DNA of 54,084 nucleotides, taken from the NCBI GenBank assembly GCA_032718475.1, contig JAUCBJ010008805.1, forward strand, positions 1-54,084, given 5' to 3'. The stretch comes from Nemertoderma westbladi (taxonomy: Eukaryota > Animalia > Xenacoelomorpha). Under the pieces are notes generated by a model, which did no database searches, was not told the DNA's origin, and saw only the letters and a list, made by a program, of their open reading frames with translations. Shown here piece after piece: positions 4,423 to 32,500 of this stretch (within the stretch, counting starts at the first letter, position 1; every line of letters starts with the position of its first letter). The translations under genes and the position numbers were made by a program.

Positions 4423-4425
4423 ATA

Positions 4426-4472
<47 letters not shown>

Positions 4473-5850: not shown

Positions 5851-6339
5851 TCTACATGGGACTACAATCTACATATTATTCGATATATTATAAGTATATT
5901 AATTCAATCTGGTATTTTAATTCAATTTGAAATTAATTCATAGAGTACTGTTTATCTAATCCCCTTTTCAATTTTGGTTTTTCAACTCGCGTTCGACTCA
6001 GTAGATGGAGTTATTTCATTTAGAATCCGACATATCTCAGGATCAGTTTGAGCCCAAAATGAAGAGCGTACAATGATTAGTTCTAATTTTAGGTTAGTTT
6101 GAGTAACAGCTGTCCAACGCAACGTTATGGACGGAACGTCAAGGGTGGAAAAAAATTCCACAATTATCAATCACACCACAAAATCATATTTTATCACTGC
6201 CATATGCTGTGCTGATATGTGCAAACCGGCAATGTACACATATAAATGACCAATTAATAACTCTGCCGTCAATAACTATAACTAACTTTTAAACTTTTCA
6301 TCATTTATAATGATTCAATTATTAATTATATGTTCAGAT

Positions 6340-7510: not shown

Positions 7511-7817
7511 TTGGCCGCTCTCTCTCCAGTGGGGATTATATTATATTATATATATTTATTTATTATTTGCAGTACAGTGAAAATATTGTAACTTAATAGA
7601 TCTATACAGTTATAAACACAGTGATAGTTGCAATACTGTAGACCTACAATATCGCCATTTATTTGATGTGCATTATTTTTATCAGCATTAGCAATTCATT
7701 ATTGTCTATATTGGGTTATTAAAAATCAAGCACAATAACCATTAACCACTGCATTAAATATAACGAATTAATATATATTAGGTCTGGTTGCCATGGAAAC
7801 ATGTACATGTACACTGA

Positions 7818-8150
7818 ACACTAGATTCACGATTGCCACTCTTTCTTGATAACTCTTCAATTATCCTTCTAAGTGCCAAAATGGGCTCCATGGTCCCACG
7901 ACCTTTACGGAACCCATTCTGATTTCCACGTAGCAGTCTCTCAATGGGATCCCTGATGCGATTTAATAGAATTCTATTGTATAGCTTTGCAGCAATCGAG
8001 ATCAATGAGATTCCCCGAAAAGAACCATAGAGTGTTAGGTTGCCCTTCTTGGGAACTGGCACCAACTTATTTGTTTTCATTTCATCTTGAACTGTCTTCG
8101 TTGTGTACGTAGAACACTCTGGTATGTTAAAGACCTCAGGGGGGACATCC
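7818..8150 (-). mobile_element. LINE (RTE-like) RT fragment
   Basis: PVPKKG..FRGISLISIAAKLYNRILLNRI..QNGFRKGR. Same family as 38950-39105. Confidence 0.8.
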
Positions 8151-8357
8151 TTGAGAGTATTATATTGTTACTGTAAAATATAAATAGAAAATTGGTCCAA
8201 ATCAGCCGCCATACCCCGTTTATAGTTCCTTAAACTGCGTTCCCTTTGTGTGAAGGTGATAAATTGGGAGGCGGTGACAGCGCTCTAAAGATCCAGTTTA
8301 ACATTTTGCTAACATCAATTAATATTTTAATTATGACCCTTTCACTTATATTTCTAG

Positions 8358-8512: not shown

Positions 8513-11500
8513 GTACGTAACCCCAATATTATTTTAGATAACAGTACATTTTATAGAACCAGTAGTGTTAATATTCATCCCAACAATCAGAATTATATTA
8601 TTCTCTCAGCCTGACTACAAAGGTATGGAACCCAACAGTATGAGTTCTAGAATATGTGCCAGGTATCTAGCAGGAAGACAAGATTATTATCAACGAAATG
8701 GCTGAAGGTTTTCATTTCATACATTACTAAAATCAAAATGTTTTCATTTCAGCCCTAACTAGCAGTAGACTGGAGCATTAGATCTCTACCTACTAACTGT
8801 AGAAACGTTCCACAAAGAATAATCTATATTTCTAGTAAATAAATTCAAAGATTCAGCTTAAACGGATTAAAATCTAGGAAATGGGCAAGTTTATCACTTT
8901 CATACATTACATACTTTCATACAACAAGCGTTCAGACTGGAGTACTGCATACTAACTACCGTCCTCAGAAAGATAACGGATGTTTCCCATTATAGCGTCG
9001 ATTTTCCCTGGGGGGGGGTGGGGGGGGAATATATTGCATCGAAATTCCCCCTTCTTTCTTCTATCTATATGCCTCTTTTGCCATTATTGTAGGAGAAGCT
9101 GTAGTGTCCTGTAACAGTCCCCTAGTCAAAGTTGATGGGGAGGCATTCTCCAGGTGTAGCATACCAGACCTTGGAGTTTACGAGTTCAACAACGTCACTA
9201 AGTCTGTAGTTGTATCAGGAATTTTCCCATGGACAGCCTACAGGTAATTCAATACAGAATATGCAGTAATGTGGGGCGAGACACGTAGTCGGCGAGCCTT
9301 TGCATACGGTTCATATAGGGCAAATGGGGCATGTCCGTCTGTCTGTCTGTCCGTCTGTCTGTCTGTCCGTCTGTCTGGTAAATGTTTGAACGCGAATTTC
9401 TCGGCATCGCTCGTTCGGAATTGAACCAAACTTAGTAGGTAAGTAGTAGAGAGAAAGTTTAGAAAGTTTGTAAAGTTTGGTGAAAAATCATGCAGTCTGA
9501 CGTCAGCTACGACAGATTATGTGGTTTTTAGAAAATGTTAAATTTCTCGGGAAGGCCTCATTTTCCTGAGCTGAAATTTTGGTGGCCTGTAGAGAATCAT
9601 GAAGTCTATCTTTTACGAAATTGAAAAGTTAAGACATTTAATTGGGGATCCGCTAGAGACTCAGAAGTAATGACATAGGCCTACCGGTACGGTACTGCTG
9701 TACAGTGCTGCACTGGTAAGTACGAAATTGCAGAATAACAATTTGACACCACCTAGCGGATTAACATATGATTGTATATCGAATGAATACATTTATAGCA
9801 TGGGATATGGGGTCCAAACTAGACATGCCCCATTTGCTCTATATGAACCGTATGCCAAGGCTTGCCGACTACGTGCTGCGCGAAGTCCCCACGAACGTGT
9901 TATTATATAACTTATACTTTCTATTATAAATATCAGTAAGCGAGGGGTGAGTACACTACCAGCAGATTTACATCTCGTTGTGATGATGAAGGTAAGCACA
10001 TACTGTATCTGTGATTAATTCAGTGTGAGTTGGTGTTAGGGGTGTCCTAAACCCTCAGTCCCTTGTTGCTGGATAATATATATTTGGGACGCACATAGAC
10101 ATTAGTTATTCTTACTTCTACCGAAGAATAGGACATTTATCTACTGTAGCTGTATGTGAAGCTGTTTGGATTCGTTATAATTATTATATCACTATCAGTT
10201 AATAATAATATTAAATTTATTATCTCAATATAATAATAATAATACATACATTATTTTATTGTCTATAATAATAATATTTTTTTTTAAGGACTCATTATTA
10301 TTTATTAATTAAGAGATTAAAATTGTATATACAATTAAATATATAGCTGCACCAACCCAACATCCCACCACCAATCAGAACAATACAATTAAGACAAACC
10401 AATTAAACATACAATTAAAAATGGTGCACCGTGGATTAATACCGGTCTGCGAGGTCATTCCCCCGCAGACCCGCACCATCTCCAAAGCCCAGCGCCCTCC
10501 AGGGACGCCGGCCACCACGCCTACAGAGGGAGTTAGAGCGGAGGAGCGCGAACTGAAGCCGCCTCCGAACTCCCCCGAGAACGCAGGCTAGGCCACGTTC
10601 CCGCATCCCCTGCCGCCGAGCCACAAGGGTCTCAGCGAGGTGGCTGATGAAGATATCAGTCTCCTTTCGGAGTCTACCATCCCGTCGGTGGTTCCGACAA
10701 GGGGAGTGAAGGAGAACCTTCTGTCTTCGCACACCGCGCTGTAGTGCACCTTCTTGGCTCGGACTCTCTGCTCGAGGACAGAGTCTAAGGACCGGTGAGC
10801 ATATGAGGGGGCGTCAGCGTTTACAATCGCGATATCGAACGACGCCACCCTCTGCTCAGTCCAGACTCCCCTCGCCAGGAGATCCAGCCCTAACTCCCCC
10901 CACCTCGCGGCCCCTTCTGTCCAGGTAGCCGGTGCACAGCGTGACTTCACGCTGTACAAATGAACCACCAAAGGCAGAAGCGATGAGGTCCCCAAAGACC
11001 TCACGGACCTCATCGTGCCGCTTTATGATCAGGCCACCCGACTTACAGTTCAGGGCGTGGGTTGTCGAAAACGGCTCCCCACACCCCTCACACTTCGCCG
11101 GGAGGCCGGGCGGCGTGAGGCCGTACCTCAGCGCGAGGTTGTCGCGGAACAGCTCTGGGGCCAGGTCGGTGTTATCCACCACGGAGGGCTGCGCCGAAAG
11201 CCACCCACCCGTCTTGTGGGACACCGTACGGTCCACAGTACGGCGCCTTTCGGCGGGGACGGATTGGACGGCGGACTCCATCGCTGCCTTATAGGCAGCG
11301 TCCTGGGCGACACGACTAGTAGCCAACGCGGAGGCGAGAGGGGGTCCCGGATCCCGATCCCCCCATGGCGGACAGGGAGGAGGACCAGCTCCTCGTCCAC
11401 AGTTCCGGGGGAAGTCCCAAAGAGGGCCGGGATGAAGCGACGCAACAGTTCAGTGCGGATCGGCGCCAGATCATCATCAATATAATAATAATATTACATT

Positions 11501-14500
11501 TATTGTCTCTATCTAATAATAATTCTTGTTTTTTCTAATTCATGAAATTGTTTTTTGTTTTTTTTTGAAATTGTTTTGAAATTGATTTTATTATATTGAA
11601 TATTTTGTTGTAAAATATTTTAACAATATTTCTAGTCTACTTCGTATTGTTCACTAGTTAATCAATTAGCTGTTTTATAATTGCTTTTTAATTAAAAAAT
11701 CATTAGAATATCTTTCTAACCACAATTTCAGGGGTGTCAATTATGCAGGACAATCACCTGTTTCATTCAAACCTGGATACTATGGAACCGACTTGGAAAT
11801 CAACATCAGCTCAATCCATATTGTCTGCGAGGAAGCCAAGTCAAAACCATCACGTTAGTGGATGGTTTAGACTCGGTCAACTGTAATTACTGTATACTAA
11901 TTATTAGATTATTAAGGACATCGATTTTTAGTAGTTTGACCAGATGAGTGAATTACGTATTTTAGAATAATTTATAATTATTTATTTATATAAAATCTCT
12001 ATTAATTAATATTGGTTCCCTTTGCAGCGAGGGCGTGCAGAACAACATCTGGTGCGAGACCATATCGGAACTGCCGGTTCCCATTCATCTACGATGGAAC
12101 CGAGTACACAGATTGTCCGTTAATCGATAGAGAATCGAACTGGTGCGCCACTGAAGTCAGTGAGGATAGGACCTATGTTCCTGGGAACTGGGGCTACTGC
12201 ACACCTGATTGTAACGGTAAAGAATAGGAATGATCATGAAATTATTTCATATTTATGAAATATTTTTGACTTCTATTATAGACCTGATGCCCGCCTTTTT
12301 GTAACTTTTAATGAATTTGACTTATTGATAATCTTGGAAGTCAACAATTTGATATGCATACTGCACCAAAAAGCGAATAAGTAGAAAAAAAGTGTAAGAT
12401 ATATTATGGGTGGATTTGAATTGTAATGTTTTAAAAAAAATCATTTTTGACGCCCCTTAGCCGCCTAAAAGTTTAGCTCTAGGGGTTTTCCTGGTCGCGG
12501 AATCCATTTCGAGTATCAGTTTTAACATTTTATGACATCTAAATTGGCTGTCAGGCTGTCGGTTATTTTTTGAAGGACAGACTAACAGGCTTACAGACAG
12601 GAACGACGAGGCCAAAATGAATACTGATATCAGTAAGTCACGAACCAAGAAAACCCATATAGGAAACAGATAGTATGAATTACATTGTTTTGTAGACATA
12701 CTGACCGACAGACCGACAGTAAAACTGACAGACAGCAATATCCCGAGAAGTAGGACAGATCTTGTTAAACGGTTTTCATATTTGGAATCTGGATCAAAAT
12801 CTGCTCTAGATATTTGAAGAGACAGTAACAATACCTGCAATATCTTACTGTAAAGTTTGTGAATCAAATCATAAATCCGACCTTCTCACCAAAACAGTAA
12901 ACTCCAAGTACCGTAAGCGAATATATTGCAGTATTGGTCCCTTATAACCGGTGAGGCAGAAAACAGTCTACGAGCAGACAAACTTCGATAAAACAAAATC
13001 CCGCGCAGCGAATCCTAAAATCAGGCTGACTCACTGACGGACTAAGGGGCTCGTATACTTTGCCGCGGTGTGATTTATATGGTTGGGCGAAAGAGACGCT
13101 AGCTAGGTGCAGAGATTTGGAGATGTCTAACTAGCGGGCAAAGTGCAGTACGGACAAAAGTTAATTTTATATATTTTGAGGTGTAAATAATTTCTAACGC
13201 GCGCGTGTTAATTCTGAACAGTCAAAATCAGTTTTGCTCCTTCACATATATAATTACTGGGTACGGTGTGCATTTTACAAATATTCTAATTTTGTAACTT
13301 GTAGGTCCAATACTCACGAATAATAAGGCTCCTTCCCCTCTTGCGTATTTCCAGGACTCAAATTCAGGCATAAGGTTAATGCTACGCCCAGAATTCGGCA
13401 ATTTTTTAATTTACCAGGTCCCTAATACTAAGAAGAAATGTGTTAGTTTACTACAGTAGGCGTACGGTTACAAATATCTATCCTGGCTCTTATCTGGAAT
13501 TTTAGTCACCTAGGTAGGCTGGGTAACTTCCTATCAGGACGTTGGCGGGGACACGGTAGATGTTAGTATATCCCTAATAGCCTCAATTTATTTGCGCCTA
13601 GTCGTAAACTGCCCTACCGCCTGAACGGTACAATCCTAATTCAGGTGAAACACAGCAACCCTCCTAGCCTACAAGTTCTAATGCAATGGACACCGTTGTA
13701 CTACAAATAGTCGCAAACGCACCTGTACTTAGCAAGAGTTAGGCGTACAGTTTGCTGCACCCTACCAATGTGTATGCTTCGTACCGGTGTGCCTACGTCC
13801 TATCTGCGTACTAGTATCTGCCTGCTCTCTCTCCCCCCCCCGTAGGAATATGAAGGTCTACTGCGGTTTTTTCCTGAATCAAGACAGTACAGTCCCTAAG
13901 ATGTAATTTTAGGCGTACAGCGTGTCACTACTTCTACCTTTGATCTTTGGTCTTACGCTTAGGTAGCAAGGCATCGAACGCTGTCTAACCTTTCAGGCGA
14001 TGGGCGAATAACTAAGATGGTATTGCGGGTTGTCTCCTGTCTACATTCCCTTGATGTTCTCGTTCATTGCTGCGGCCCGATCTCTAGCCGGCCATCCTGT
14101 TCCTAAGTGTGTTCACCGTAGTGAATCATGGTGAAAAGAAAAGGCAGGTAGCGGTATTTCTGAGTTTATTGCAGATAATAATACAAAATGTAATCTGAAA
14201 ACTAATGACAGAATAAACAAAAATCAGATAACTCAGAATAATTGAATATATAATTGAATAACTAATGAACAAATCGCACCTTTATATAGCAAATTTGTGC
14301 TGCAATCAATCGAGAACATTCTATAATTATATTGGGTTTTTAAAGATAACCATTGGTCCAGCTAATATATAACTTGCACGACATTGGTTACAATCTAATA
14401 ACTGCAGTCTCATTGGTTAATCTAGGTACAGACAAATGTAATTTAATTTGTAGCGGTCAATTTAAATGAGTTGAAATTCTGTACAAAAAATAATTCGCAC

Positions 14501-17500
14501 TTACTAGGATTCGAACTCAATACCTACTACATATATAATTTCCAACGCTCTACCGACTGAGCTACTGAACCACTTGACTAAACATCGTACAATAGATATA
14601 ACAAATGCAAATGAGGATTCAAGGTAATCTTTTAGCAAAGTTAATTCGAATAAAAATAAAATTTTGAAAATCCACGGCATTTAGGGAATACCGCTCCATG
14701 AAAACAGGATATTATCGTGCATAAAATATACGGTTTTCACCAATAATCAATCAAACTATAGAATACTTAGGGCGTACTTACATATTTACAATTAAATTTC
14801 AAACAATACTTCCTTTCTACATAATGATTCGATACAAAATAATTACAAATTCAAACTTTACGTATTTAAGGCTTTACTAAGTAAGTACAATATAAATCTA
14901 AATTAAATTCACCAATATAAATCTATTGCATCTCAATATTGCATAAATTCAAACAATTAAAATACAAATAAATGAAAATTATAAGAAAAGGCTCGCGAGT
15001 CTTCCATCTACTATTGCATCTCAAATATTGCATAAATTCAAATAATTACAAATACTTTCGTGCCTAAATGTAGATTGCATAAGTTCGGAATAATTACAAA
15101 TATGAGTCTTTCTAAGCACAAAACTTTCTAACTATAAAACTTTCTAAATACAAAATATAACACTTTACAAATGAAACTATAAGAAAGGCCCATGAGTCTT
15201 CCATCTACTCTTACTTTCTATTTCACTGTAAATACAAATACTGCTTATAAGATATAAATTGCATAGTATTCGGAACAATATAAATTGCATAAGTTCGGAA
15301 TAATTACAAATATAAAATATAAATTCTTACAAAATATAATCTTTACTAAATATAGATATAAACTGCATAAGTTTAGAATAATATAAACTCCTTTGCATCT
15401 CAAATATGAAACATAAATCTTTCAAATATAAGTTCCTTCTAAATATAAACTTTCTAAATTTCATAAATTCGGAACAATACAAATTGTATAAGTTCGGATA
15501 AATATAAAATATATAACTCAAATAAATCACAAATTCACAAGAAAGGCTCACGAGTCTTCCGTCCACCCTTGCCCTCCCTTTTATCGCTTAGTTGATCGAG
15601 CCCTGCCGCGTCCTCGAAAACTGCGCACAGGTGACTTTGCTCGCGATATGGGACTCGTGGGGCGAGTCACTGGTTTCGCTTGGACGTTGAGAGACGGTGC
15701 GACTATTTCCTCGCAAATTCGTCTATTTGGCATCCCAAAACCTCGACCGATTCCTCGTGACCGATCAGTTGTCACTACAGTTGGTAGAACGTCTGGGAAT
15801 GCGCGGGAAGCGGACGACGCAGACCCAAGAGCAGCTTGCGCCCCCTTTTGATCAGCTGGTGTGTGTCCCGATCCTCCTGTTGGTTCTCTAGGAAGCGATA
15901 CCGTATCCGTATCCCGTATCCCGAGTAATTCGAATGGTCGGCTCAGCTCCCTTGCGTTCTTCTATATTAATAGACTTCTTTAACTGTTGGCCCACTTTCT
16001 GGACCCGTATGATCCTACCCTGTCCATTCTCCCGAGGGTGACGTGCAGACGGCGCAACCGGAGTGGCTGGTATATTTGTCGCCTCTAGGACCTCGAATAC
16101 GCTCGCTCGTATACGTTTGTGGTAAAACGCGGCTCGGTACGCCCATGCGACGGTTAACCAAGCTCCTTTATTCCGCTTTTCAGTTCGGAAACGATCGAAT
16201 TCACCATACGTGATGCGATTAACGACTTTCTGAAAATTCCACGTGTTTTTGTTATCGGGGTGAATCTGTAATAGATACTCGCGCACTACTCGGAATCCAC
16301 TGTCGTGGGGTAAAATATCGACTACCTCGATAAGTTCGTCATATTGGGGCATAGCGGAGATGTATCCTTCCGACATCATCGTTTGGGGATTTACCGCCCA
16401 AAATCCAAGATGCGCCCTCATCGGAAATCGTCTTCTTTGTGCCGATACATGTTCGTCGGCTAAATCTTCCCACTCATCGAATAATTTTCTCACGAGTTTT
16501 ACAGATTCGTGTTCATAGGGTATGTCTCTTAGTTGGCATTCAGATGCTCGATGCCCTTTTATATTGCAATAAGTACATTGAGCCATAAATCTCCAGCAAG
16601 TATAAAAGGTATGAGACCCTTGATCTCCACACCATCCACAGATTAGCTGAGTCGTAGTAATGTGCTTTCCACTGCACTTGGTCGAATGATGTCCAGCGAC
16701 GCCACATTTACCACACATCGTATTGGCAGGGTACCACACTCGTTCGTATATAAGATCTCCAATCGGTCGAACGCTTCCTCCCACACTATAATCGTAATCA
16801 TCTGGATCTATGGGTTGGTAGGTTTCTGAGGGTTGTATACAAACTATAGCATCTGTTGCTTCAAGTTGTCGAATCTCCGTCTGAGATTTCTTCGGGAGGT
16901 TCCTTTCTATCTCAAGAAGTTCCTCTAAAGGATCGTCAGTGATCGTAGTAGTTACTTCGAAATCATCACCAAGGTGACCGATAGGCGCGCGCGTCTGCCG
17001 TGATTCATCCGTAATCTCCACGATACGTTCTCCTTCATAGGGTAACAATATAAACATAGATGGTCTTTCGATAAGAGATCCCGCACAGCGAAGATACACG
17101 TCTCGAAATATACTAAATCCTGCTCGAGTAAAGGCATTACACTGAGCGTCGGAGTTGTAGAAGGGTTCAAGGAATCGTCTAAACACGTCGGTATGAATTC
17201 TCCCTTCCATGTAGAACGTATGATCTTCTCCGAGACAAAGTGGATGTCTTTTGAGAGTCCGAGACACAATGTCGGCGATTAGGCAAACATTCACTGACGA
17301 CTCTATTGCTAAATAATATTGTAGGACCGCTCGTGGAGGTGACGTAATAGCCCAATACACGCATCCTCTCCATTTAAGCTGTGATTCAAACTCACTCATA
17401 TCTGGAGTATCACCTTCTCCATAAGTCTCAATATACTTGGTTCTCTTACTTTCCTTATAATCCCAATTGAATAACAGGTAGGAAATGTATCCAGTTCCAG

Positions 17501-20500
17501 TCTTCTGAGTATTATACTCACGAAAATATCCCTGTTCTATAGACCACAAAATAAGAGGTCGAGTGTCGACGTAAGGTGTCGGTAGTCGGTCATCGCTGTC
17601 CGTCATGCCGGCGAAGTCGTTAATTAAGTCCTCCCTTACTCCTGATCCAATCTTTACAACAGTTTTATCTAAAATCATGTTTCTTACCATCTTCGGTAGC
17701 ATTCTAGCGTCGATATTACAAGCTTGGTCCATCTTCTTTACTATGTCAGTGATAAGATGGTGTCGCTTTGTATTCGCTGGAGGTATCGGCATTCGTTTGT
17801 CGCTCCTCTGACTACTGAAAACGTGCAGGACTCCGTCCGCCGCTCTAATTTGTATAGTCTTAGAAGTCAAACTCTGTTGATGACTACCGCCCTCGTTATC
17901 GTAAAACATGTAACCATTTTCCTGAAACGATCTAAACGTCCTATTCCATTCATCCAACAATTCTTCCGAAGGTTGCCAAATCTTCTCTATGTCCTTATCA
18001 TCTTCGAAACGAATAACCTTACCTCGCCAATCCGCGGCAATATCTGTATCCGACTCGAAGGTTCCGGTTCCAATCCATAAACGAATCGTCTTGGTTAAAT
18101 ATCCTTTCAAATTACTCGGAGCTATATCGGCACCAGCTCTATCCAGTTCCTTAAAGTCTTGAATATGAGGTGGAACGTTGTACACGACCTTTTGAGTAAT
18201 ATGTCTACGTAAATCATATATCTTACTCATATCGCTGAAAACAACTGCAGGAAGAAACTCCAAGTTTGAAATGATTTCTGGATGATCCACGATGGGTATT
18301 TCGTACGTCGTATCCTGTCGGACTGGTATACTAATAGGAAAATTGAGTGTCGTACTCAATGGTTTCGTAGTTGAAGTACTATATGGTTGCATTTCTCTTG
18401 TCCTCTCCGGGGATGCAATCTGTAGTCTCTGAATAACGTTTTGAGCAAAGTTTATGCTCTCGAAAACTTCCGGTGTCATCTCCTTAGCTGGAGTTTGATC
18501 GTGTGACGTCCAATGGTAAGGTAGGCTCGCGAGTCTTCCGCCCCATTCTTCCATCTCACCTTTCTCGAAAGCCTTGTAGGCTTTGTAAAGGCTAAGAGCT
18601 TCTTTCTTTTCGCGGGTTGACTGATTTGCCTCGTCCAGCGTAAGTTCAAATACATCGGGTTCAACAATCTTAGGTGGGTAAACGACAGTTTCTCCCGCCT
18701 TTGGTCCGGTCATAGCAAACGAATGATATGGATTCGATAAAGGATACCCTCCTTCCTGATAGCGTAGTTGTTGATGGTTCGAACACCTCGCCAATATCGG
18801 TTCGGGATTTTCCTTATTCAAACGCATCGGAATCGCATTTCGTTGTTCGCGCATACAAGAACCGCATTGATAATAAAGTTTATAAACTGAAAATGCTTCC
18901 TTGGTTTCTCTATCGTCCCCTCGAGTTCGTCTGTAAAGATGCATTCCATCGAATTCATCGCGTACCGCGGGCATAGGTTCGTGCGCCTTTAGGTATTGCA
19001 TGGTATGATACAAACGACTAATTTCAGTATCGGGGTCTTCGCTAATGTCTCCCGTATCACACAAAGCGTCGTACGGGTACAGTTCATTGAAGGTTTTGCG
19101 CAAACTTTCGATTCTTTCATTTAATGCGTTTTGTCTTCTCTTTAATACATTTGAGTCATATTTAGTTCTCGCGAGTTTCGCTGTACTTTCTGATAATTCT
19201 TTTATACCAAATATAGTGTAGTCCTTGGCTCCAAATCTTTCGAATGGCGCTGCTGCCTCCTCTTGGATATCATATCCCCATCTCGGCTCTCCTTGTATCC
19301 CTTTCTCCATAATTAGAGGTGTAGTTACATAATCATTACTACTAGAGGGAATACAACAGAGTTTGTAGTTAGTTGTGAGGAGACGTGAGAGTTTCGTCTG
19401 CCCTTTTGGCTCGACAACGCTCTAACCTCCTACCCTAGCCTAAGATCTAGGGTTTCTTTAATGACACGCTGCTTCTTATCTAAAAATTTTTGCCGAAATA
19501 AAAACGAATTTGGGCTAAACTGGCTGTGAGTCTAAAATACTCACCTTTTGATCCCAAACTATTATCAGAAAATAAGCAGTCAAGAATTAGTAATAAATAT
19601 AGGGGAGTCTATTTTGACGTAACTTATTGAAACAAGACCGTGTAAAATTTAATTAAAATTTTAAGAAAGGCTCGCAAGTCTTCCTCTCTTGTTTCTCTAA
19701 TTTTAAGTTCCACCCGACTGTACCCTGAAATCTATTCACTGGAGAAAATTTTAAAAATTTTTCAAATCCAAATGGATTGTCTAAAATTTCGAAAATGTCT
19801 CAATATTGTGAGTTCCAAGTAGAATTCCATTTCTTATACCTACAAATCCCGCTCCTATGTGACACATAAGGGTACTACCCTCAATGTTCACATATAAAGA
19901 CAATGGAATTTTACCGCTGTCCTTACTACGGTGTACAGGTACGTGGAAATCTATTTGTAAACTCCTAATTATTTACTAATATTAGTTGGAGATTTGTAGT
20001 CTCCAGACTCGTTACGAGTCTCTTCAAGAAGTACGAGACGTTGAGTCGGTCTGTCTACTGTACGACCGTCAATTGTCCGTACCGTCACAGTTCTTGTCAC
20101 TCCATCCATAGATGGATGTGTGGCTAAAATTACACCTGTTATCCAGAAGCGTCTTTTTAGATTCACTTCCACTAACAGCACGTGATCTCCCGGCTTTAAT
20201 GCGCGGGTGTTATTGTACCAGTTTGTTCTGGCAGAAATAGAGGGCAAATAATGGTTTTGCCATATTTCCCAGAATTTGTTAGCTAGTAGTTGCGTGATTT
20301 TCCACGCTTTTCTACCATTGCTATCGCCTTCTATTGGAATAGAAATAGGCATTAATGTGGTCGGTGCCTGCATAAGCAGGTGTGCCGGTGTTAAAGCAAA
20401 CTGGGATTGTTTGTCATCGGGTACTAATACTATTGGTCTAGTATTTAGTATTGCCTCGATTTCAACAAACAGTGTTGTCAGTTGGTCGTCTGTCAATATG

Positions 20501-23500
20501 TGGTTTACTGGAATGACCTTTGCCATGGCTGTCTTTATAGATCTAATCAATCTCTCCCAGACTCCGCCTCTCCATGGACTATCTGGAGGATTAAACTTCC
20601 AAACAATCTTGTAAGGACGTAGTTCGTTTGAGATTTGATCATGATCCAATTTCTTAAAGGCTCTAGCAATCTCATTTCGAGCACCAACAAAGTTTGTCCC
20701 TTGGTCTGAGTACAAGCATTTCACTAGTCCGCGTCTAGCGATAAATCGCCGCAATGCTAGTATAAACGCGTTGGTGGAAAGATCCATCACACGTTCAATA
20801 TGAACTGCCCTACTGGACATACATGTGAAAATCAGTCCCCAGCGTTTTACTAGTATACGTCCACGTTTCGTATGTATGGGACCAAAGCAATCAATTCCAG
20901 TCTCTGTAAAAGGTGGTCTGAATGCTTGAAGTCGTGCTTATGGGAGTTCACTCATTTCTTGGGTACCTATTCTAGAATGTACCTTTTTACAAATAATACA
21001 CGTACGTGTCACTGAACTTAACGCTTTACTGTGTCTAATTAATACAAATCTTGTACGTAAGTAGGAAAGATAGTGGTGTCTTCCAGCGTGTTTTAGATGT
21101 AAATGTGCGTCCAGTATCATTGCACGTTGTAGTTCGTGATGTTGTGGTATTATTATTGGGTATCTAAAGTTTGTGTTAAAGTCAATGTTTTGAAGCCGAG
21201 ATTTATGACAAATTAAGCCATTATAAATTATCGGACTCCAACTCAATATTGGTGACGACTTGATTGGTTGACCTTGATTTATAGATGTGAATTCGCGCGC
21301 GAAATATCACAGTTGGTAATGGCGAATTAATTTAATCTCACACCTGTCAATCTCAGTCAATGTAAGTCGACGTGTAAAGTCTCGTTTGCCTTTAACGTAT
21401 TGTACAAAACGTACAATCCACGCTAATTTTCGGCAAGCGTTTGTCCAAGAGTCTGTTAAGTTTACAATACAGTCGACGTGAGTATTTGTGACGTCATCAG
21501 GTAAGTCAAAGAATTTGGAAGGTTTTGATTTACTAGAAGGGCCCACGGGTCCGCCGGTAAGTATTCCCTTGTTGACTGTTGATCCGTCCGGGTCTACAAG
21601 TAATTTGTCCTTCTTCGTCTTCTTACCTTGATTGTCAGTACTTTGTAAGTCGATCGTTAATGGTGGTTTGAACTCTATGGGGTCGGTGGGTTTCAGTAAA
21701 CTTAATTTTCTGCCGATATTAATCCCGGGTCTCACCATAGGTTGCAAGTTTGGTATGTCTCTTGAGCGCAGAGTAACACCTGTATTTACATTAGCGTAGG
21801 TACTACCCACATCTGTAATACATGAGGTTTCACCGTGCTTATGGTTGCTCAAGTGTGTCAAAATTGGTAGTTTGTCAATACAAGGCCGCTCCAATAGGGA
21901 AACTGCGGCTTTACTGTTTGTCAATATGTTACTAGTGTCTGGTAGAACATTTTGTGACATGTCTGGCAAAACGTCTGGTTGCGCTTTCGTCCTTTTGGGC
22001 TCCTCTCCGAGGCGCACCCATGAGGTGGACGTGTTTCCACCACCCCGGGGGCCAGTTCGACTGATATTTCTATCAGTCGGATGTTCCAACCAGGCCGCAG
22101 GGTGGCCCGATGCTTCCCGGGTTCTGTTTTCGGTCCCCCGATCACACCGGCACAGCTCGTCGAACGTGTAGCCAGATGGGCGGCTACTGTCAACTTACTG
22201 TGGCCTGACTGTACATTGAGCCAACTCAAAGTATAACAAAGAGTCAACCGGCAGGTGGACCAGTCGATAGCGATCGAGCACCAAGGTCGCCCTTAGGCCT
22301 AACCGACGGTCTTGTCCCATGTGGGCTTGAGCTACCCAACATGGAATTTTGACTCGTTTTCACCTGCCTCGCCGCAGTATTGAAAAGACAATACTGTCTG
22401 TAGCTCAAAAGCTACTGAACAAGTAACCACTTACCAGTCACTGTACACGTGTACTCAACAGATGTTCACGAAATCAAGTACACAAACGGTAAGCACAAAA
22501 TCGAACACATACCATGCACACACAGAGACATAATCGGTAAGGACAAAATCGGGGTCAAATCAGAGGGGACAAAATTGTATCGATCGGAGGCAAATCAAGA
22601 GTACTTATTTTGCCGTCAGGGCAAAATAACTTTGTGTGCACAAAGTATGCTGGGGCGCAGTAAAGTATGGTCCTACTAATACCAGTGGCGTCTTGTCCAA
22701 CTGGCAAGGGTTCCCATACCCACTCGCAGTGGCCACACATACAATCACGTGTACTCACGTACCCACAGCAACAGAAAGCTCAAGACCCGACGGTTTATTC
22801 CAATGCCACCAAAGACCAATCAGCTGAACATGGAGACAATAACATATAGTATCAAAAAAACGGAACAGCTGATGGCCAATGGAACCATCCAAGCCCCAAG
22901 CAAACTGCCACTGATCGCCCACATACGAAACATAGTTCGCGCCACATGAGCCACAAATCACGCCATGCCACCACCCCTACTGTGTACAGGACTGGCAGTA
23001 CGGCAACATGCCGACTAGACGGAACCACGGCACCATGGCAATTCATGGTTCGCTAGACACGAGGGCCTTAAGTAACTCCCTTGCACTATATCACCAGATT
23101 TAACGTGCCCCCAGACCCTCACGAGTCCGCCGCCGCCTGTTGACAGCACCCTTATAGAGACCTCACCTCTTTAGGTACCGTCTGGTAACGTGTCTGGTGT
23201 AGAAAGGCTCGCAAGTCTTCCGTTCTTGACCTTTGAAGTTATATCTTTCCATTTCGCCTTCGGTTTTTTCTTGAGTTTAGCCGCCGTCTTTTTCTTTGCT
23301 TTCCCTTTCTTTGGTTTTTTAATTTCCGCGTCTTTAGGGATAGTGTTAGACTTGTTGTCGTATAGTGGTGGCCAATGTTGTATTGATCCCTGCAAGAACT
23401 GTGGTCCGTGCTGCCAAAATTCTTTGTTCTCCGGTTTACAGAATTCCTCAGGCATCATTCCTCTTGACGCAATATCGGCTGGGTTTTGTGGTCCGGGACA

Positions 23501-26500
23501 ATGTCGCCAATCTTCCTTTATTGAACGGTCTAGAATTTCTGCGCGACGGTTAGCTACGAATGTCTTGATTTCAAGTGTGTCGTTGTTTATATAAAATAAA
23601 ACCAACGTCGCGTCAGTCCAATAAAATATCTGTAAACTTGACTGTAGTTCTGTCTGTATAAGGTTCACGATTGTGGTTGACAGGGTTGCGGCTTGTAGCT
23701 CAGCTCGTGGTGTCGTCATATACTTAGTAGGCATTGTTTTTGCCTTAGAAGTAATGAGCGAAACATCGAATTCTTCTGAGTCTACTTGTCTGCGCAAGTA
23801 CGCTGCCACACCAAAGCCGTTGTCACTGGCGTCGGAAAAACAATGTAATTCCAAGTTGTCAGGAAATGTTGTTTGTAATGGAAAGTAGACTCTGGGTATG
23901 GAATAATCCTCTAGCGAAGATAATTCTGCCTCCCAGGTTTTCCATAAGTCCACTTGGTCTGATGAGATCGGCTCGTCCCATGTCAGTCCATCCTTCCAAA
24001 TACTGCGCATATAAATTCGGGCTTGCAGTATTATTGGACTGATGAATCCTAATGGATCGAACAATCGGCTCAATTTTGATAAGCATGATCTCTTTGTCAG
24101 TGTGTTTTCTTGACTGTCCAGTCTCACCTTCACTCGAAAGTTGTCCGTGTTTGGGTCCCAAAAGAGCCCCAACACCTTGGTCGTCGGTAGTGGTTCGAAC
24201 TCTAGGTCTATGTCACCACCTCCACGCTCAGTCGTTCCGAATGAGTCTACCAATTCGGCACTATTTGAGGCAAATTTGGTGAGGTTAAAACCTCCGCCCT
24301 CTAAGCAGTCCCGTAATTGATGTGCTACTGTTATAGCACGTTCTACTGTGTCACAACTCTGTAAACCGTCATCGACGTAAAAGTCACATTCTACGATCTT
24401 AATTATCTCTGGGTCATATATGTGTTTCTGATCCCTAGCGGCTTGCTTTAGGGCGTACATCGTACAGTTTGGGCTGTCCCTGGCACCGAAAACGCGAACT
24501 TGCATTTGGTAAGTCGCCGGTGGTAGACTTAAGTCTCCTTCCGGGTACCAGAGGAACCTCAAACTGTCTCTGTCTCGCTCTAACGCTCTCACTTGGTGAA
24601 ACATAGCTTCGACGTCACAAGTAAAGGCTACTTGACGCTGACGGAAGCGCATAATCACCCCCATAAGATAATTATTCATGTTTGGTCCATCCATCAACTC
24701 GCTATTGAGGGACATTCCCTCAAACAGAGCCGCACAGTCATTGACTACACGTACTTTGTCTGGTTTGTTGGGGTGTCTCACGTAGTGATGTGGCAAGTAG
24801 TATGTTTGGTCAGTCACTATCTCCGGGTTAGTCATTCGGATAGCGTATCCCTTGGTCAAATACGTCTCCATCTGAGTGTTGTACTGCAGATGGGCTTTCT
24901 CGTCCTTTAATAGACGTTGTCGTATTGAGTGTAGACGTCTTAAAGCTAGTGGATAGTTATTTATGAGTTTAGGACTTTGGCTACGCCATAACATCCCTAC
25001 CTCATAATGTCCGTCTTTCGTCTGGCGGATAGTATCTTCCATTATCTTCAAAGATTGTTTCTCCTGTTCCGACATACATGGTTCGTAGCTACCAGGTTCA
25101 GCTGTATCTTGTTCTAACCACCTGATAGTCTTCTCCGTTAATTCTTTGTCCAGTGCAGCTTGTTCCACTTGATGATTTCTTAAAGCGTCATCATTGATAT
25201 CGACGGGTATTGTTGAGGTTATTGGGGTAGGTGGACTCGCAAGCCTTCCGGCGTTATCATCTGTCGTCGATGGAATCTCTGGCTGACTCGTCTTCTCCCC
25301 AAGTTCTAAACTCACCTGGTGGATTAGCTGCTCCTTGTGACTTATCATACTAGTTACACGTCTGTCATGTTTTGTATGTAAGGTAGTATAGTCTACGTCG
25401 TGTGAAAAGGAATGAGTCGACGTTGTAGTTAATAAACTACATGTACTTTGTATATCGTCTTCCTCGTCACTTATATCCAGTGTGCGCACAGGCGCTCGAG
25501 TATACCATCCTATCGGCGTTCTACAGGCGTATGCGTTTCCCGCTACGACTGCCGATGGTCTGGTTTCCCACACTTGATGTAGGTTGAATTGGTCTGTCCC
25601 GATCAGCATTGCTACCGATCTATAATTGACAGGACATTCAGGTACACCAAGGTGTCTGAAATACTTACGGTCCTCCAAGGATTGTTCTGGGACAGGACCT
25701 AGTAGGTTACTAAAGTCCTTGGTGGCCGCGAAAGTCAAATCCTTAAAGGGTAACAAAGATCTCTCCTTTTCGCTGTGTTGCGATTTCGGAAGAAGAGTGT
25801 CTAAGTTTAACTTAACTCGTGTCACTGGTATTGCACGTTGTCCGTGCATACTACTTACGGTGTAACTGACGTGCTTACCTTGTCTGAGATCCGTCACGAC
25901 ATCAGCTATCTGCTCATCCATGTAGCTGTGAGATGAGGCTGAATCCAGGATAGCGTAGATTCTCTTGCTCCCTTTTGTGCCAGTAATCTTAATCGGAATT
26001 ACACTGAAACCCTTTAGTTGGTCAGTCGTCAGAAGCGCGATCGATGGTTGTTCGTCTCCATCTGAATATACGTCGTCGTCTTCTGACTCTTCGTCCGACG
26101 ATCCGGATTGTTCTGAGAAGCAATCCTTAATATGTGTCACGAAGGTTGGAGTCGTTTTAGATTCTCGATTCTTGTAGGCTGTATTACATTTCGCTGCTGC
26201 TTCCGGGTGTTCCCTGGCGAAGCGTTTTGTCGGCGTGTGGCTGTCTGGGTGGAGCAGACCGTCGTGGTTGCGTCCACAGGATGGACAAGTGTCGGTATTT
26301 GGGCAATCTTTGCGGACGTGTCCGTGTCGCGTACACCGCCAACAAGAGTCCAGTGGCCGTATCTGCAGCCGTCGTTCTTCCGAGTTTAACTCGCGAAACT
26401 GTCGACAACCTCTCAACTTGTGACCGATATACCGCTTGCCTAAATGCTCGCAGTATTGGCAGCCGCTGAAGTCTGTACTGAGTTGCTGTCTAGTCTGTTT

Positions 26501-29500
26501 TATTCCAATGGGCGCAGATACCCTACTACCGTCCGAGAATTGTCGTGTTTCCGTCGATGTGGCGTAAGTGGCCGTCTTGGTGGATGTTGTCTGGGGTTTT
26601 TGTCGGTTTGACGATGGCAAGGTGATTCCTTCTGCTACGATGTGCTGGTCAGTGTAGTTGGATCGAGTTTCTACCACTGCTTCCCTGGATATCAAAAGGT
26701 ACACATCTTCCAGTTTTAAGAATCCACCCCGCTCTTCCCGCTGGTATTCGATCTTCCTCCACTCCCGACGAAGTCGATGGTGGAGTCGTCCTATGATCTT
26801 TAATAGGACTGTAGGGGTATTCCCGTAGTCAAGTTGTCCAATGGATCTCAAAGTAGTGATAGCGTTCTTTATTTCGTCAGCCAGTTTCAATAAGTCGACG
26901 GGTTTAGTAATAGCCCCTCCCTTACAGAGTTCCTCTATCACTGACCTGGCCATGCTGACTGTACCTCCGTAGATCGAAGTTAAACGATCGTACGCTAGTT
27001 CGAAGGCGTCCGGTACACCAACGAAGGTCTCCGCCAAACGTTTAGGTTCTCCCGACAACGTTTGAAGCAGGTAATTAAACTTCTCCCGTGATGTAAAGGC
27101 GCACACGGCGATCTGAGATTCGATATAGTCTACGAAAGTGTGCCAGTGTTTTGAGCTACCGGAAAACTTAGGTGGTTGTTGCACCGGTAGTCCTTGTCTA
27201 GCTGCGAATTTCGCTATTTCTTCTGCAACGTTCAGAGTTTCGCGTCCTTGGTTGGTAATCTGGTTGATGTCCCTTCTTGGCGCTTTTCCCTGATATGCTG
27301 TGTTTTTTGAAGGTATAGTTCTTTGTGGTTCCTTCGGGTATCTATTGTGTTCGAATTCAGTGTTCCTCGAACTATCGGTTTGAGCTTCCTCCAGACGTTC
27401 CTCAATCTGAGCCAACTTGTTAACAACTGGTCGCAGGATGTCGGCGAACTGTTGTGTACTGATTGCGTCCGTTGGTTGTAACACCTTCTGTGTTGGTGTA
27501 TTTTGTGGAGGATTGTCTACAAAGGAGTTGTCTGAACGCTCGCGTTTATATTCATCGGCCGCCCCTGTTCTAAATACCTCGCGTTTCGGGTAATCCGATT
27601 CGCTCGAAGTACTACTATCATCTGGATATGGTGGTCGACGTGCTCGCGTCCGTTGCGTCATACGAATTCTAATGTTTCGTTTCGGAACATCGTCCACTGA
27701 TCTCCGTTGTTCGGTAGGCTCACAAGTCTTCCTCGAAGTCGTAGATTGCGATGTAAACTGGTTGAACGGTCGCGTATCCACTGTTCTCCGTTGTTCGGTA
27801 GGCTCACAAGTCTTCCTCGAAGTCGTAGATTGCGATGTAAACTGGTTGAACGGTGGTTGGACGACAGCGTTTGAATCCAAAGGCCTTGTAGGCCTAAACG
27901 TCATTGGGTACGTGTAGTGCGTAACGAGTTTTGGTGTCGAAGGTGGACTCACCTGTTTTGTCGTCAGTAGTGCAGGTCCAGTCAACAAACTACTACGATC
28001 TGTAATCGGTGGGTTACTTACCTTGACTTTCAAAATAGGCGACGACGTTGCTCTTGACGGTATGAATTTGTCCGGAATAACCAACCTGTGTTCCGTCGCA
28101 CCATGGATAGGAGAAATATCACTACTACCCGCAATCGAAACAGGTTCCTTAGTTGTAACTGGTGCGAACATAGGGGTTACTTGAGGGAATCTTTGACATA
28201 AGTCTTTAACTAATTGTCGTTCCCGTCCAGGTGCTCCTATCGAACCTTCCTTCATTCGTTCCTGGATTTGGCGGTGCCTTACCTCTATCTGGTCCAAATC
28301 ATGTCCGTCACGAGATCTCATCGATCGATCGCGGGCTAGAAGATCCAGATTTTCCTTGGCTTCGGCTAATTCTCTCGCCTTCTTCTCAAGTTCGAAACGA
28401 AGTTTAACTTCCTTTTCTCGTTGTTCCGTTTGTTGTTGTTGCGCCTCGAACTCCGCTTGTCGTATAGCTGATTGAGCTTTTATTTGCCGTGTCTTCATCT
28501 CGACTCTGGCTTCTGAAACTAACCTTTTTCTTTCTAACTCTGCCGCTGCCGTTTGTCGCTCTAACTCGGCTGCTGCCGTTTGTCGCTCTAACTCGGCTGC
28601 TGCCGTTCGTTGCGCTAACTCGGCTGCCACCGTTTGTCGCTCTAACTCGGCCGCTGCCACTGCCGTTTGTCGCTCTAACTCGGCTGCTGCCGTTCGTTGC
28701 GCTAACTCGGCTGCCGCCGCTTGTTGGGCAATGTCCAACTCTAACCTTTCCATTTCGGCTGCTTCGAGTTCGGCTTGTTCCTGCAGATGAGAGATTCTCG
28801 CTACATTCGCAACGCGTATTTTCTCTTCCTCCACCGCTGCTTGTATCATTAGCAGTTGAGTTTGTTCTTCCATTTCGTGTTGCTGTCTGTAGAACTGTTG
28901 CTGTTGTCGAGCAACTTCTGACGTGACCATACTTCCCTCGCCAATTTCGCTACGAATACTTACCAACAATTGATCCAGTATTCCCGGTGCCGATTCGATT
29001 CGTACGGGTGAAGTTTCCCTCGTATATTCCGGCACGGTTTCCAAATCGCCGACGTCTTCGCCGCACATTCGTAAGTGGTCCGTCAGATGTTTCAATTGTC
29101 CATCTAGCCTATACAGTTCCTGTTCTTCCTCGGGTTGTAATAATTCGTCCGAAACTGACTCACCTAACAACTGGTCTGCTTGTTCCTGTTGTATCTGTCT
29201 AATCGTCGACTTAAACTGAATCAGTTTCTCTCTAGCGATCATTAGTTTCTCGAGGATTCTAAGTTGTGTGTCCATATCCTGTCTCTGTCTAGCTAGATCT
29301 TGTAGACCAATTAGGTTATCTACGGACTTATGTACTTTACTCTGTACTCTTACCTGTAAAGTGTAGAACTCGAACCGAGACATCGGAGCGGTCAACTCGT
29401 CTAATATGCGTTGGCCTTCTCCAATACTCCTGGTTATATGCGCCATGTAACCGCCGACGCTTCTAACCACACTTTCTGTGCTTCCTACTGAACTTACCAT

Positions 29501-32500
29501 GTCCGTTTCCCTGTATCTAGGTTGCGGAACAGTTAGAAAGTCCTCGGTCCTGCCGTCGCCTCGTACTACGGCATCCGGTACTCCCGTTGGATGTACTGGT
29601 GATGCACACGGTGTAGGTTCGGTAGGCTCGCGAGTCTTCCCCTGTAGTTCTTCCGCTGCTGACTTATCCGCGTCACATGAGTCATAGTCGGTAGGTGTAT
29701 TCTTTGTATAGTCTTGTTTGTCACTCATTTCGGTAGTTGTAAGTCAAGTAAAATGTGAGTGTCAAAGTATCGAATTTACCGTATTTATATTTAAACGGTA
29801 CTAATTACAGTCATATAAAATTGGCCTACCGGCCGATTTTATAGCAGATGGATAAAATTAGCCTAAACGGCCAATTTTACAGCAAATAAATGTCATGGAA
29901 TAAGTATATAATAAAATTAGCCTAGCGGCCAATTTTATAACAAATAAATCGGATAACGATATGCGTTATCAAAAGGTAAATTAAATACAATAATACGGAC
30001 TAATTCAGCAATGAAAAAAGAAATCGTACAGAATGCATAAATACTTGAGACAGTGGAACCCACAATAATTTTAACTAATACGGTAATGCCTAACTTATTT
30101 ATGCAACTTTTCAAACTCACCCACTCCAATAATTCTCCAGAAAAACAGATTCCCAGATACAAACCGGACGTGAACCTTTCCGTTTTCAACGTTGCGGACG
30201 AAGCGCGATTTTCCCAACCAAAGTTGTTGAGTTATCTATCTCCCAAACTTGCTAAACACGGTCTTGCTCTCGTTACAGTCTAGAAATGAGTTCTGAATCC
30301 TGAAAAACAAAAGAGTTAGGTTTTACTTTTACGAAAAATTTTGTACCGGTACAATATGGTATTTAAACCCTTTTAAACACCGGTATTCAATTCCAAAATA
30401 TTTTACACGCGGTTCAAACCAAATTTTATTTCAAAATTAGCACTTAGCTAATCAAATATAAATTTTTACCTCAAAATACAAAATTTTCAAATAACTTTAG
30501 TCCTACCGAACCGTAGTTCAGTAAAACATATTCCTACTATTTGAAGAGACAGTAACAATACCTGCAATATCTTACTGTAAAGTTTGTGAATCAAATCATA
30601 AATCCGACCTTCTCACCAAAACAGTAAACTCCAAGTACCGTCAGCGAATATATTGCAGTATTGGTCCCTTATAACCGGTGAGGCAGAAAACAGTCTACGA
30701 GCAGACAAACTTCGATAAAACAAAATCCCGCGCAGCGAATCCTAAAATCAGGCTGACTCACTGACGGACTAAGGGGCTCGTATACTTTGCCGCGGTGTGA
30801 TTTATATGGTTGGGCGAAAGAGACGCTAGCTAGGTGCAGAGATTTGGAGATGTCTAACTAGCGGGCAAAGTGCAGTACGGACAAAAGTTAATTTTATATA
30901 TTTTGAGGTGTAAATAATTTCTAACGCGCGCGTGTTAATTCTGAACAGTCAAAATCAGTCTTGCTCCTTCACATATATAATTACTGGGTACGGTGTGCAT
31001 TTTACAAATATTCTAATTTTGTAACTTGTAGGTCCAATACTCACGAATAATAAGGCTCCTTCCCCTCTTGCGTATTTCCAGGACTCAAATTCAGGCATAA
31101 GGTTAATGCTACGCCCAGAATTCGGCAATTTTTTAATTTACCAGGTCCCTAATACTAAGAAGAAATGTGTTAGTTTACTACAGTAGGCGTACGGTTACAA
31201 ATATCTATCCTGGCTCTTATCTGGAATTTTAGTCACCTAGGTAGGCTGGGTAACTTCCTATCAGGACGTTGGCGGGGACACGGTAGATGTTAGTATATCC
31301 CTAATAGCCTCAATTTATTTGCGCCTAGTCGTAAACTGCCCTACCGCCTGAACGGTACAATCCTAATTCAGGTGAAACACAGCAACCCTCCTAGCCTACA
31401 AGTTCTAATGCAATGGATACCGTTGTACTACAAATAGTCGCAAACGCACCTGTACTTAGCAAGAGTTAGGCGTACAGTTTGCTGCACCCTACCAATGTGT
31501 ATGCTTCGTACCGGTGTGCCTACGTCCTATCTGCGTACTAGTATCTGCCTGCTCTATCTCCCCCCCGTAGGAATATGAAGGTCTACTGCGGTTTTTTCCT
31601 GAATCAAGACAGTACAGTCCCTAAGATGTAATTTTAGGCGTACAGCGTGTCACTACTTCTACCTTTGATCTTTGGTCTTACGCTTAGGTAGCAAGGCATC
31701 GAACGCTGTCTAACCTTTCAGGCGATGGGCAAATAACTAAGATGGTATTGCGGGTTGTCTCCTGTCTACATTCCCTTGATGTTCTCGTTCATTGCTGCGG
31801 CCCGATCTCTAGCTGGCCATCCTGTTCCTAAGTGTGTTCACCGTAGTGAATCATGGTGAAAAGAAAAGGCAGGTAGCGGTATTTCTGAGTTTATTGCAGA
31901 TAATAATACAAAATGTAATCTGAAAACTAATGACAGAATAAACAAAAATCAGATAACTCAGAATAATTGAATATATAATTGAATAACTAATGAACAAATC
32001 GCACCTTTATATAGCAAATTTGTGCTGCAATCAATCGAGAACATTCTATAATTATATTGGGTTTTTAAAGATAACCATTGGTCCAGCTAATATATAACTT
32101 GCACGACATTGGTTACAATCTAATAACTGCAGTCTCATTGGTTAATCTAGGTACAGACAAATGTAATTTAATTTGTAGCGGTCAATTTAAATGAGTTGAA
32201 ATTCTGTACAAAAAATAATTCGCACTTACTAGGATTCGAACTCAATACCTACTACATATATAATTTCCAACGCTCTACCGACTGAGCTACTGAACCACTT
32301 GACTAAACATCGTACAATAGATATAACAAATGCAAATGAGGACTCAAAGTAATCTTTTAGCAAAGTTAATTCGAATAAAAATAAAATTTTGAAAATCCAC
32401 GGCATTTAGGGAATATAATTCTATACTAGATGAAATAGAAAAAAATTGGAAAACAAGTATTTGAAAGCCAAATACAAAAGTAGGTGGAGTTTTTAATTGT

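Follow-up and report, generated by a model that had tools for sequence, protein, structure and literature searches.

Open reading frames (ORFs) that encode DEDDy 3'-5' exonucleases have been described from rotifer transposons, namely the long terminal repeat (LTR) elements Juno and Vesta of bdelloids and the Athena elements (Terminons), in which they bear a DEED motif; the available text of these reports gives no proven activity (PMC5408684, PMC6431247, PMC6338049). Described here is a candidate for a further gene of this kind, ORF3, in an LTR retrotransposon of the Bel/Pao superfamily from Nemertoderma westbladi (Animalia, Xenacoelomorpha). The stretch of DNA analysed, hereafter the window, comprises 54,084 nt (GenBank assembly GCA_032718475.1, contig JAUCBJ010008805.1, positions 1 to 54,084 of the forward strand). 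The element occupies 19.6 kb from LTR to LTR on the minus strand of the window, and its genes, signals and domains are given below in window coordinates and read on that strand. ORF3 (15888..19310, 1140 amino acids (aa), intact) is a family gene under purifying selection and very probably contains a DEDDy exonuclease domain.

Comparison with described systems

As far as the available text of the rotifer reports goes, the ORF3s of Juno/Vesta and Athena/Terminons are likewise RNase D-like DEDDy frames, separate from pol, downstream of it and in the place of env; they likewise have one catalytic Asp replaced by Glu and lack transmembrane and coiled-coil segments. A preliminary description of this DNA, made from the sequence alone, had mentioned DEDDy extra ORFs in gypsy-type elements of rotifers, a precedent found in the accessible part of PMC5408684. 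Differing from those genes, the present one has a Bel/Pao host, a DEDE rather than a DEED motif, a length of 1140 aa and, in its element, a primer site complementary to the LTR. It also carries three CCHC knuckles and a 430-aa N-terminal region, whereas knuckles are reported for gag/pol in the rotifer elements, and it shows purifying selection, whereas no significant departure from neutrality was seen there (PMC5408684, both points from the sections available).

The same layout, a DEDDy exonuclease with a cluster of CCHC fingers after it, is found in the RNase D of Trypanosoma brucei (TbRND; PDB 7c42; PMC7797062, available sections), and a profile of ORF3 and two relatives (below) matched both parts of that protein weakly. 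TbRND works in mitochondria as a cellular enzyme, has four fingers and joins them to the nuclease by a short linker; in ORF3 the fingers number three and stand about 165 residues from the nuclease, and there are extra domains. The knuckle matches between the two are generic. EXD2, the WRN exonuclease, Nibbler (mut-7), Exd1 and NrnC (PF01612) share with ORF3, in register, ExoI D-x-E, ExoII K-x-G-x-G..D and ExoIII W..Q..Y-x3-D/E; against this group ORF3 has two insertions of about 30-40 aa and 15-22% identity, and it falls below Pfam detection.

Members of the Belpaoviridae with an env-like third ORF have, like this element, the Pao-type order of pol domains, a third ORF placed between the integrase and the 3' LTR and splice signals of env type (PMC8742986, PMC13524379, as far as available). 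They differ from it in that the third ORF here is predicted to encode an enzyme-like soluble protein, the integrase stands in a separate frame, the LTRs end in TA and a tRNA primer site is missing. In the self-priming gypsy elements Tf1/sushi, 11 nt of the LTR are likewise complementary to the primer site; Tf1 belongs to a different superfamily and, in the portion of PMC7175516 at hand, needs no exonuclease.

ORF3 as a gene of the family

ORF3 begins 659 nt past the integrase stop, ends 1198 nt short of the 3' LTR and has the same sense as gag-pol; an open frame of this length has a chance expectation of about 2e-31. The uninterrupted 1140-aa frame of the preliminary description was confirmed, on the minus strand. 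The stretch was found in runs from three studies that carry one organism label (one of them possibly the source of the window), with a small share in a fourth, and variants and joints were drawn from the contigs of four of the nine listed runs.

Within the nuclease core (17280-17920), 25 of the 35 variants are silent and 10 are replacements, against an expected silent share of 21-28% (P ~1e-7). The resulting pN/pS of 0.11-0.16 compares pooled variants with one copy and is not a codon-model estimate. For one of the ten replacements a further variant falls in the same codon, and the pair may be silent together. No variant introduces a stop or an indel, and the sole catalytic codon touched changes silently. 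Over the whole element the best-supported differences are mostly private to the window copy; the 29 of 40 rows that could be classed, which leave out non-coding rows and two integrase stops, divide into silent and other changes as 8/10 in gag-pol, 4/2 in the integrase and 3/2 in ORF3.

That ORF3 might be a passenger, i.e. a captured host gene or a nested insertion of no use to the element, would agree with the loss of about 2 kb of it from minor copies (joints 17026/19155 and 17138/19171) and with the rotifer ORF3s, for which the accessible text of PMC5408684 reports no significant departure from neutrality. This explanation is largely refuted by the low pN/pS and by the splice joint that ties ORF3 to the leader of the element (below), and is regarded as very improbable. 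The window repeat scan found no repeats or duplication flanking ORF3, no target site duplication (TSD) frames it and introns are lacking; among a selection of rows, divergent contigs run through its N-terminal part ungapped and show gaps of 3 and 6 in the linker. The case in which ORF3 would be a nested insertion with its own TSD, confined to this copy, which had been named as a possible refutation, did not arise. ORF3 is a family gene under purifying selection.

Contig depth is alike over ORF3 and gag-pol, an observation of little weight because it is not a copy number and the runs were found via ORF3. Separately, the contig depth in one run, X4, exceeds that over the nuclease 4- to 18-fold at 15675-17459 (3' end of ORF3) and 23410-25194 (reverse transcriptase-RNase H); crude as depth is as a measure, the pattern suggests an amplified deleted derivative.

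Predicted exonuclease domain and knuckles

The predicted DEDDy 3'-5' exonuclease domain covers aa 440-700 of ORF3 (17211..17993). Its predicted catalytic residues are D471 and E473 (ExoI), D561 (ExoII), and Y666 and E670 (ExoIII, with Glu replacing Asp), and the motifs named earlier were all found (FYDNEG at 469, KIGSGVREDL at 553-562, YLAIE at 666). Their spacing, which the preliminary description had likened to that of WRN/EXD/mut-7/RNase D, is longer than in compact EXD2-like enzymes: read off the alignment, 90 residues separate ExoI and ExoII (about 59 in EXD2-like enzymes) and 109 separate ExoII and ExoIII (about 69). The three clustered CCHC zinc knuckles, also as first described, lie at aa 866-925 (16536..16715; aa 866-879, 891-905 and 912-925) and were identified by motif and by alignment with the knuckles of two relatives, P0003 and P0004; the only Pfam match to the single sequence is zf-CCHC (E 0.15). 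A predicted helical tail at aa ~935-1015 (16266..16508) is common to ORF3 and both relatives (E.fAD.G..R..GF). The N-terminal region (aa 1-430, 18021..19310) gave no usable match in Pfam, NCBIfam, PDB sequences or the ESM Atlas, in agreement with its earlier description as unrecognised; the CGSC (149) and CSNH (175-178) noted there form the motif C149-x2-C-x22-C-x2-H178 (18866-18777), a putative zinc site. ORF3 has no signal peptide, transmembrane stretch or fusion-protein homology (maximum 19-residue hydropathy 1.38, N-terminus 0.07), and was not regarded as an env gene because signal peptide and membrane anchor are missing.

A HMMER search of 1.84 billion representatives yielded four matches to ORF3. 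Two of these, P0002 and P0005, were dropped as generic knuckle matches (a coffee protein and a copia gag). The others, P0003 (558 aa) and P0004 (715 aa), align over the nuclease, the knuckles and the tail with 25-28% identity; they sit on single contigs of 7.5 and 11.3 kb and are possibly ORFs of other mobile elements. Word-index homologue searches with ORF3 gave no match and were insensitive, missing P0003 and P0004 too. Relatives of the ORF3 locus were not found in metagenome, viral or prokaryote contigs, nor by tblastn in phages and plasmids; a profile search of 151 proteobacterial genomes returned no relative of ORF3 (best E 0.013, most matches with stops).

To identify the domain, ORF3 and its relatives were compared with 40 bacterial PF01612 domains, among them 16 EXD2-like and 20 NrnC-like ones. 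Against the EXD2-like set, hhalign gave a probability of 81.6, a pairwise E of 1e-5 and a score of 41.8, while 100 column shuffles reached at most 21.5 and the reversed control 13.8. When 34 of the 40 bacterial domains were aligned together with ORF3, P0003 and P0004, D471, E473, K553, D561, G605, W653 and Y666 are invariant in all 37 rows, and E670 aligns with the ExoIII Asp, a position that also holds Glu in P0004 and holds Asp in P0003. A profile of the three sequences, not seeded with bacterial rows, placed EXD2 first in the PDB (E 0.079), followed by the trypanosome RNase D (0.089, mainly knuckles) and WRN (0.52). In the ESM Atlas, residues 400-780 fell close to a cluster assigned to PF01612 (0.92, with 163 features in common; 50% of the cluster members carry the family), which was taken as a lead, and NCBIfam matched the ExoI region weakly to an epsilon subunit (E 0.027). 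When AlphaFold was seeded with the bacterial rows, the model reached a predicted local distance difference test score (pLDDT) of 71 and a predicted template modelling score (pTM) of 0.69. It matched NrnC and EXD2 by Foldseek, and by VIA Pol A, diDNase, WRN, Nibbler, RNase D, Exd1, Egalitarian and TbRND, among others. Z scores were 11-13.5 against NrnC, EXD2, WRN, Nibbler, RNase D and Exd1 (WRN: Z 12.5, root mean square deviation 3.3, 171 aligned; Nibbler: 12.1, 3.2, 177), and 10.6 against TbRND.

Several results weigh against this assignment. Pfam calls PF01612 in none of ORF3, P0003 and P0004, all being below cut-off, a search of the PDB with the ORF3 sequence singly found no match, and the PDB profile matches are all weak, the best being the E of 0.079 given above. 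In hhalign the probability was 4.8 against the NrnC-like domains, with one of 100 shuffles higher (this shuffle scored 136, which is unexplained), and 1.0 against E. coli RNase D. With plain hidden Markov models (HMMs), ORF3 scored no higher than 0 against the bacterial profiles (best -1.2 bits, reached by 5 of 300 shuffles), and no HMM match to the NrnC-like profile was obtained. The ExoIII position holds Glu instead of Asp, and the unseeded AlphaFold model of the three sequences reached a pLDDT of just 30. The seeded model and its structure matches speak for compatibility and are not independent proof, because the seed consisted of DEDDy sequences. On balance there is little doubt that ORF3 440-700 has the DEDDy exonuclease fold, as judged from profile, alignment and seeded structure comparison together; the preliminary identification is upheld, and searches empty of any DEDD fold, which would have spoken against it, were not what was obtained. 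By its sequence the domain is a remote member of the superfamily for which no subfamily can be named, and it is filed under the superfamily because it is too divergent for the Pfam cut-off.

Expression of ORF3

A canonical splice donor, GTGAGT, lies in the 5' leader (30115..30120), and a splice acceptor, a pyrimidine run followed by AG, is found 31 nt 5' of the ORF3 ATG (19342..19351). In run X4 one contig joins 19341 to 30121, reading TGG/GTGAGT..TTCCCTCTAG/ in the sense of the element, at a depth of 211, similar to that of X4 over gag. The pattern GTGAGT..(Y)nAG occurred at one of the 14 joints viewed (15 of 57 joints were covered); its chance per joint, computed after the fact, is about 4e-7. 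Between the integrase and ORF3 there are two pyrimidine-rich acceptors, the sole ones of such strength in 15.8 kb. The second acceptor (19739), together with a donor at 19544, could define an optional 195-nt non-coding exon between the two genes.

X4 is guessed to be a DNA run, in which case the joint probably stems from a spliced ORF3 RNA whose copy re-entered the genome; were X4 an RNA run, the joint would be the splice itself. Another run, X5, guessed to be RNA and having a small share under a different organism label, was left out as evidence of expression. Under both readings ORF3 is part of the element's own transcription unit. Splicing from leader to ORF3, as seen in that contig, is likely to be the normal route of ORF3 expression, in the manner of env; the point that tells against it is that the joint comes from one contig of one run.

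Structure and classification of the element

The element is bounded by a 3' LTR of 1880 nt (12811..14690), which ends in TA..TA rather than TG..CA, and a 5' LTR of 1878 nt (30538..32415). The two are 99.5% identical (8 substitutions and one 2-nt indel), and the insertion was judged young for this reason. Between the TSD and the sequence matched as 5' LTR lie ten extra nucleotides (32416..32425), which the inner edge of the 3' LTR lacks; when they are counted in, the 5-bp TSD CTAGA (12806..12810 and 32426..32430) holds, and a contig of run X4 ends loosely on the identical 10 nt. ORF1 (23171..29728, 2185 aa) encodes Gag (DUF1759, knuckles), a protease, a reverse transcriptase (RT) with YVDD, and RNase H (Peptidase_A17). 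Its stop is followed by about 1 kb without a long frame (22195..23170) and then by the integrase frame (19969..22194; H2C2, DDE core, DUF5641), which in the window copy contains two stops (20938-20940 and 21307-21309) not common to other contigs. The gap between RNase H and integrase was taken as a family trait because contigs cover it like the rest of the element, and a nested insertion as its cause was ruled out by the repeat scan and the contig coverage. A minority of contigs, with short sides and weak support, skip most of this gap. The 3' untranslated region (14691..15887) is AT-rich, has internal repeats and a short purine run beside the LTR, and differs among copies.

Pfam matches to DUF1759, Peptidase_A17 (E 1.7e-42), Integrase_H2C2 and DUF5641 (E 1.1e-21), together with motifs, give the Pao-type order Gag, protease, RT, RNase H, integrase. 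Peptidase_A17, DUF1759 and DUF5641 support the Bel/Pao identity originally proposed; together with Integrase_H2C2 these models form the Bel/Pao set, and the name Pao stands in the Peptidase_A17 model itself. The profile of the Belpaoviridae by the International Committee on Taxonomy of Viruses (ICTV) gives a genome of 4.2-10 kb, LTRs of 0.2-1.2 kb and an 18-nt primer site matching a tRNA 3' end (PMC8742986). With 19.6 kb the element is about twice the ICTV size range, its LTRs measure 1.9 kb, and its primer site lacks TGG and complements its own LTR; by its pol domains it is an atypical lineage outside the described Bel/Pao range.

The primer-binding position adjoins the 5' LTR (30527..30537, 11 nt). 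It is the exact complement of LTR positions 31577-31567, a match reached in 2 of 3000 shuffles; that LTR site (31567..31577) is followed by a run of 7-9 G and is a candidate self-primer, with a second copy in the 3' LTR (13842-13852). An initiator-like TCATATT overlaps the complementary site, but TATA-like boxes occur elsewhere. A tRNA-like stretch with the look of A- and B-boxes was noted by eye in the LTR (~32310-32220, minus strand, with a counterpart in the 3' LTR), but neither ARAGORN nor Rfam called a tRNA or a ribozyme in the LTR. In Tf1 the self-primer has 11 nt complementary to the primer site and is freed by RNase H alone (PMC7175516, available part).

A second Bel/Pao family is represented in the window by two copies with 84% identity, at 46648-54084 (plus strand) and 1-4142 (minus strand). 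In both, a 12-13-nt site 2-3 nt past the likely LTR end (48130-48142; ~2675-2664) exactly complements a stretch about 435-460 nt upstream (47694-47706; ~3135-3124), which makes this family a candidate second self-priming family.

Possible role of ORF3

We tentatively propose a chain of steps in which ORF3, intact in the env position under purifying selection, would be translated from the env-style spliced RNA and would fold as a DEDDy exonuclease. Despite the Glu in ExoIII the nuclease is probably catalytically active, as judged from its conserved residues. The knuckles, by analogy with trypanosome RNase D, may grip single-stranded RNA, and the target would be host RNA silencing: host small RNAs or their tails would be trimmed or destroyed and the silencing of the element weakened. 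In TbRND, most RNA binding and cleavage is lost when the finger domain is deleted, and guide RNAs become depleted when the enzyme is overexpressed, according to the available sections of PMC7797062. Since the accessible text of PMC5408684 places DEDDy ORFs in both gypsy and Penelope-like elements, their role would not be tied to one way of priming. The counter-silencing reading was adopted because ORF3 is a stand-alone accessory protein and several of its fold neighbours act on small-RNA ends, as Nibbler, Exd1 and TbRND do. Some points count against it: mature PIWI-interacting RNAs (piRNAs) carry 3' methyl protection, the fold group also contains DNA exonucleases (WRN, Pol A), for which reason the specificity for RNA stays conditional, and the odd primer site offers the exonuclease another job. 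Taken whole, the chain of a selected, spliced, RNA-trimming protein that weakens small-RNA silencing is plausible yet far from assured; it is the likeliest of the readings weighed here.

The other job would be maturation of a self-primer: an RNA from the LTR would anneal to the primer site, and the exonuclease, recruited through its knuckles, would shorten the unpaired 3' tail of that RNA as far as the 11-bp duplex, so that RT finds a 3'-OH. The exact 11-nt LTR complement adjoining the LTR end (2 of 3000 shuffles), the missing tRNA-type TGG and the resemblance of the knuckles to nucleocapsid fingers fit this idea, as does the trimming of single-stranded 3' tails by RNase D-type enzymes (PMC7797062, available part). 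It is nevertheless rather unlikely: the self-primer of Tf1 requires RNase H cleavage alone (PMC7175516, as available), ORF3 lies outside the Gag-Pol polyprotein, so that packaging is not automatic, and the like site of the second Bel family, whose 3' end falls outside the window, lowers the odds of an exonuclease tied to priming. The fuller version, in which a Bel/Pao lineage gave up tRNA priming and a captured exonuclease-knuckle protein in the env position trims LTR-derived RNA to a primer duplex, is somewhat less likely again; none of the searchable papers describes an LTR element that primes by means of an RNA-trimming enzyme of its own. On account of the second-family site, the RNase H of Tf1 and the recurrence of DEDDy ORFs across element classes, counter-silencing was ranked above primer trimming, and proofreading was placed lowest of the three.

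Proofreading or trimming of cDNA ends for RT, which a long RNA genome (~17-18 kb) might need, would suit the size of the element (19.6 kb, well beyond the family range of 4.2-10 kb; PMC8742986), the Pol A and WRN exonucleases among the top fold matches, and the TA ends with their 10 extra terminal bases. It is quite improbable, however, as copies differ freely, mainly by transitions, the knuckles point to RNA, ORF3 probably has a separate mRNA, and the available text of PMC6431247 mentions no exonuclease in its accounts of the larger LTR elements Burro and Ogre. ORF3 may instead have lost some or all of its nuclease activity and persist as an RNA-binding scaffold or decoy, comparable to Exd1, Maelstrom and Egalitarian, that serves to transport RNA, to assemble particles or to interfere with the piRNA machinery. 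The ExoIII Glu shared with P0004, the presence of Exd1 and Egalitarian among the fold matches and the 430 unexplained N-terminal residues lend it some colour, and the same option was raised for the rotifer ORFs (PMC5408684, available sections). Set against these, four acidic positions and the Tyr are kept, unchanged among family variants, P0003 retains Asp, and Asp-to-Glu is a conservative change; such a scaffold is held to be improbable.

Other features of the window

Decayed fragments resembling non-LTR retrotransposon ORFs were recognised by eye at 4384-5851, 7778-8167, 10436-11493 and 37961-38620, and no significant Pfam match was found among the fragments scanned. Tandemly repeated units of 50-52 nt and of 37 nt lie at 45944-46681 and 44987-45252, and 27-nt coding repeats within gag at 28513-28756.

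Significance

No report of an exonuclease in Bel/Pao, of an exonuclease ORF3 with knuckles or of Bel/Pao self-priming was found in a literature search that left subscription journals mostly outside, and the word 'exonuclease' does not appear in the accessible main texts of PMC3118150 and PMC13524379; a prior annotation in Repbase, Dfam or GyDB is possible. The enzyme class and the type of capture are known; new here are a further host superfamily, the knuckle architecture, the env-style splice and the odd primer site in one element. The exonuclease ORFs of retroelements, so far without sign of selection or function, are thereby extended to a further superfamily, and the soluble domain of ORF3 is directly assayable. 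If ORF3 trims the primer, it would represent a new way of starting reverse transcription. Should it act on small RNAs instead, ORF3 would be an animal case of a transposon gene that suppresses RNA silencing, a kind long expected from an arms-race view and, to our knowledge, rarely shown.

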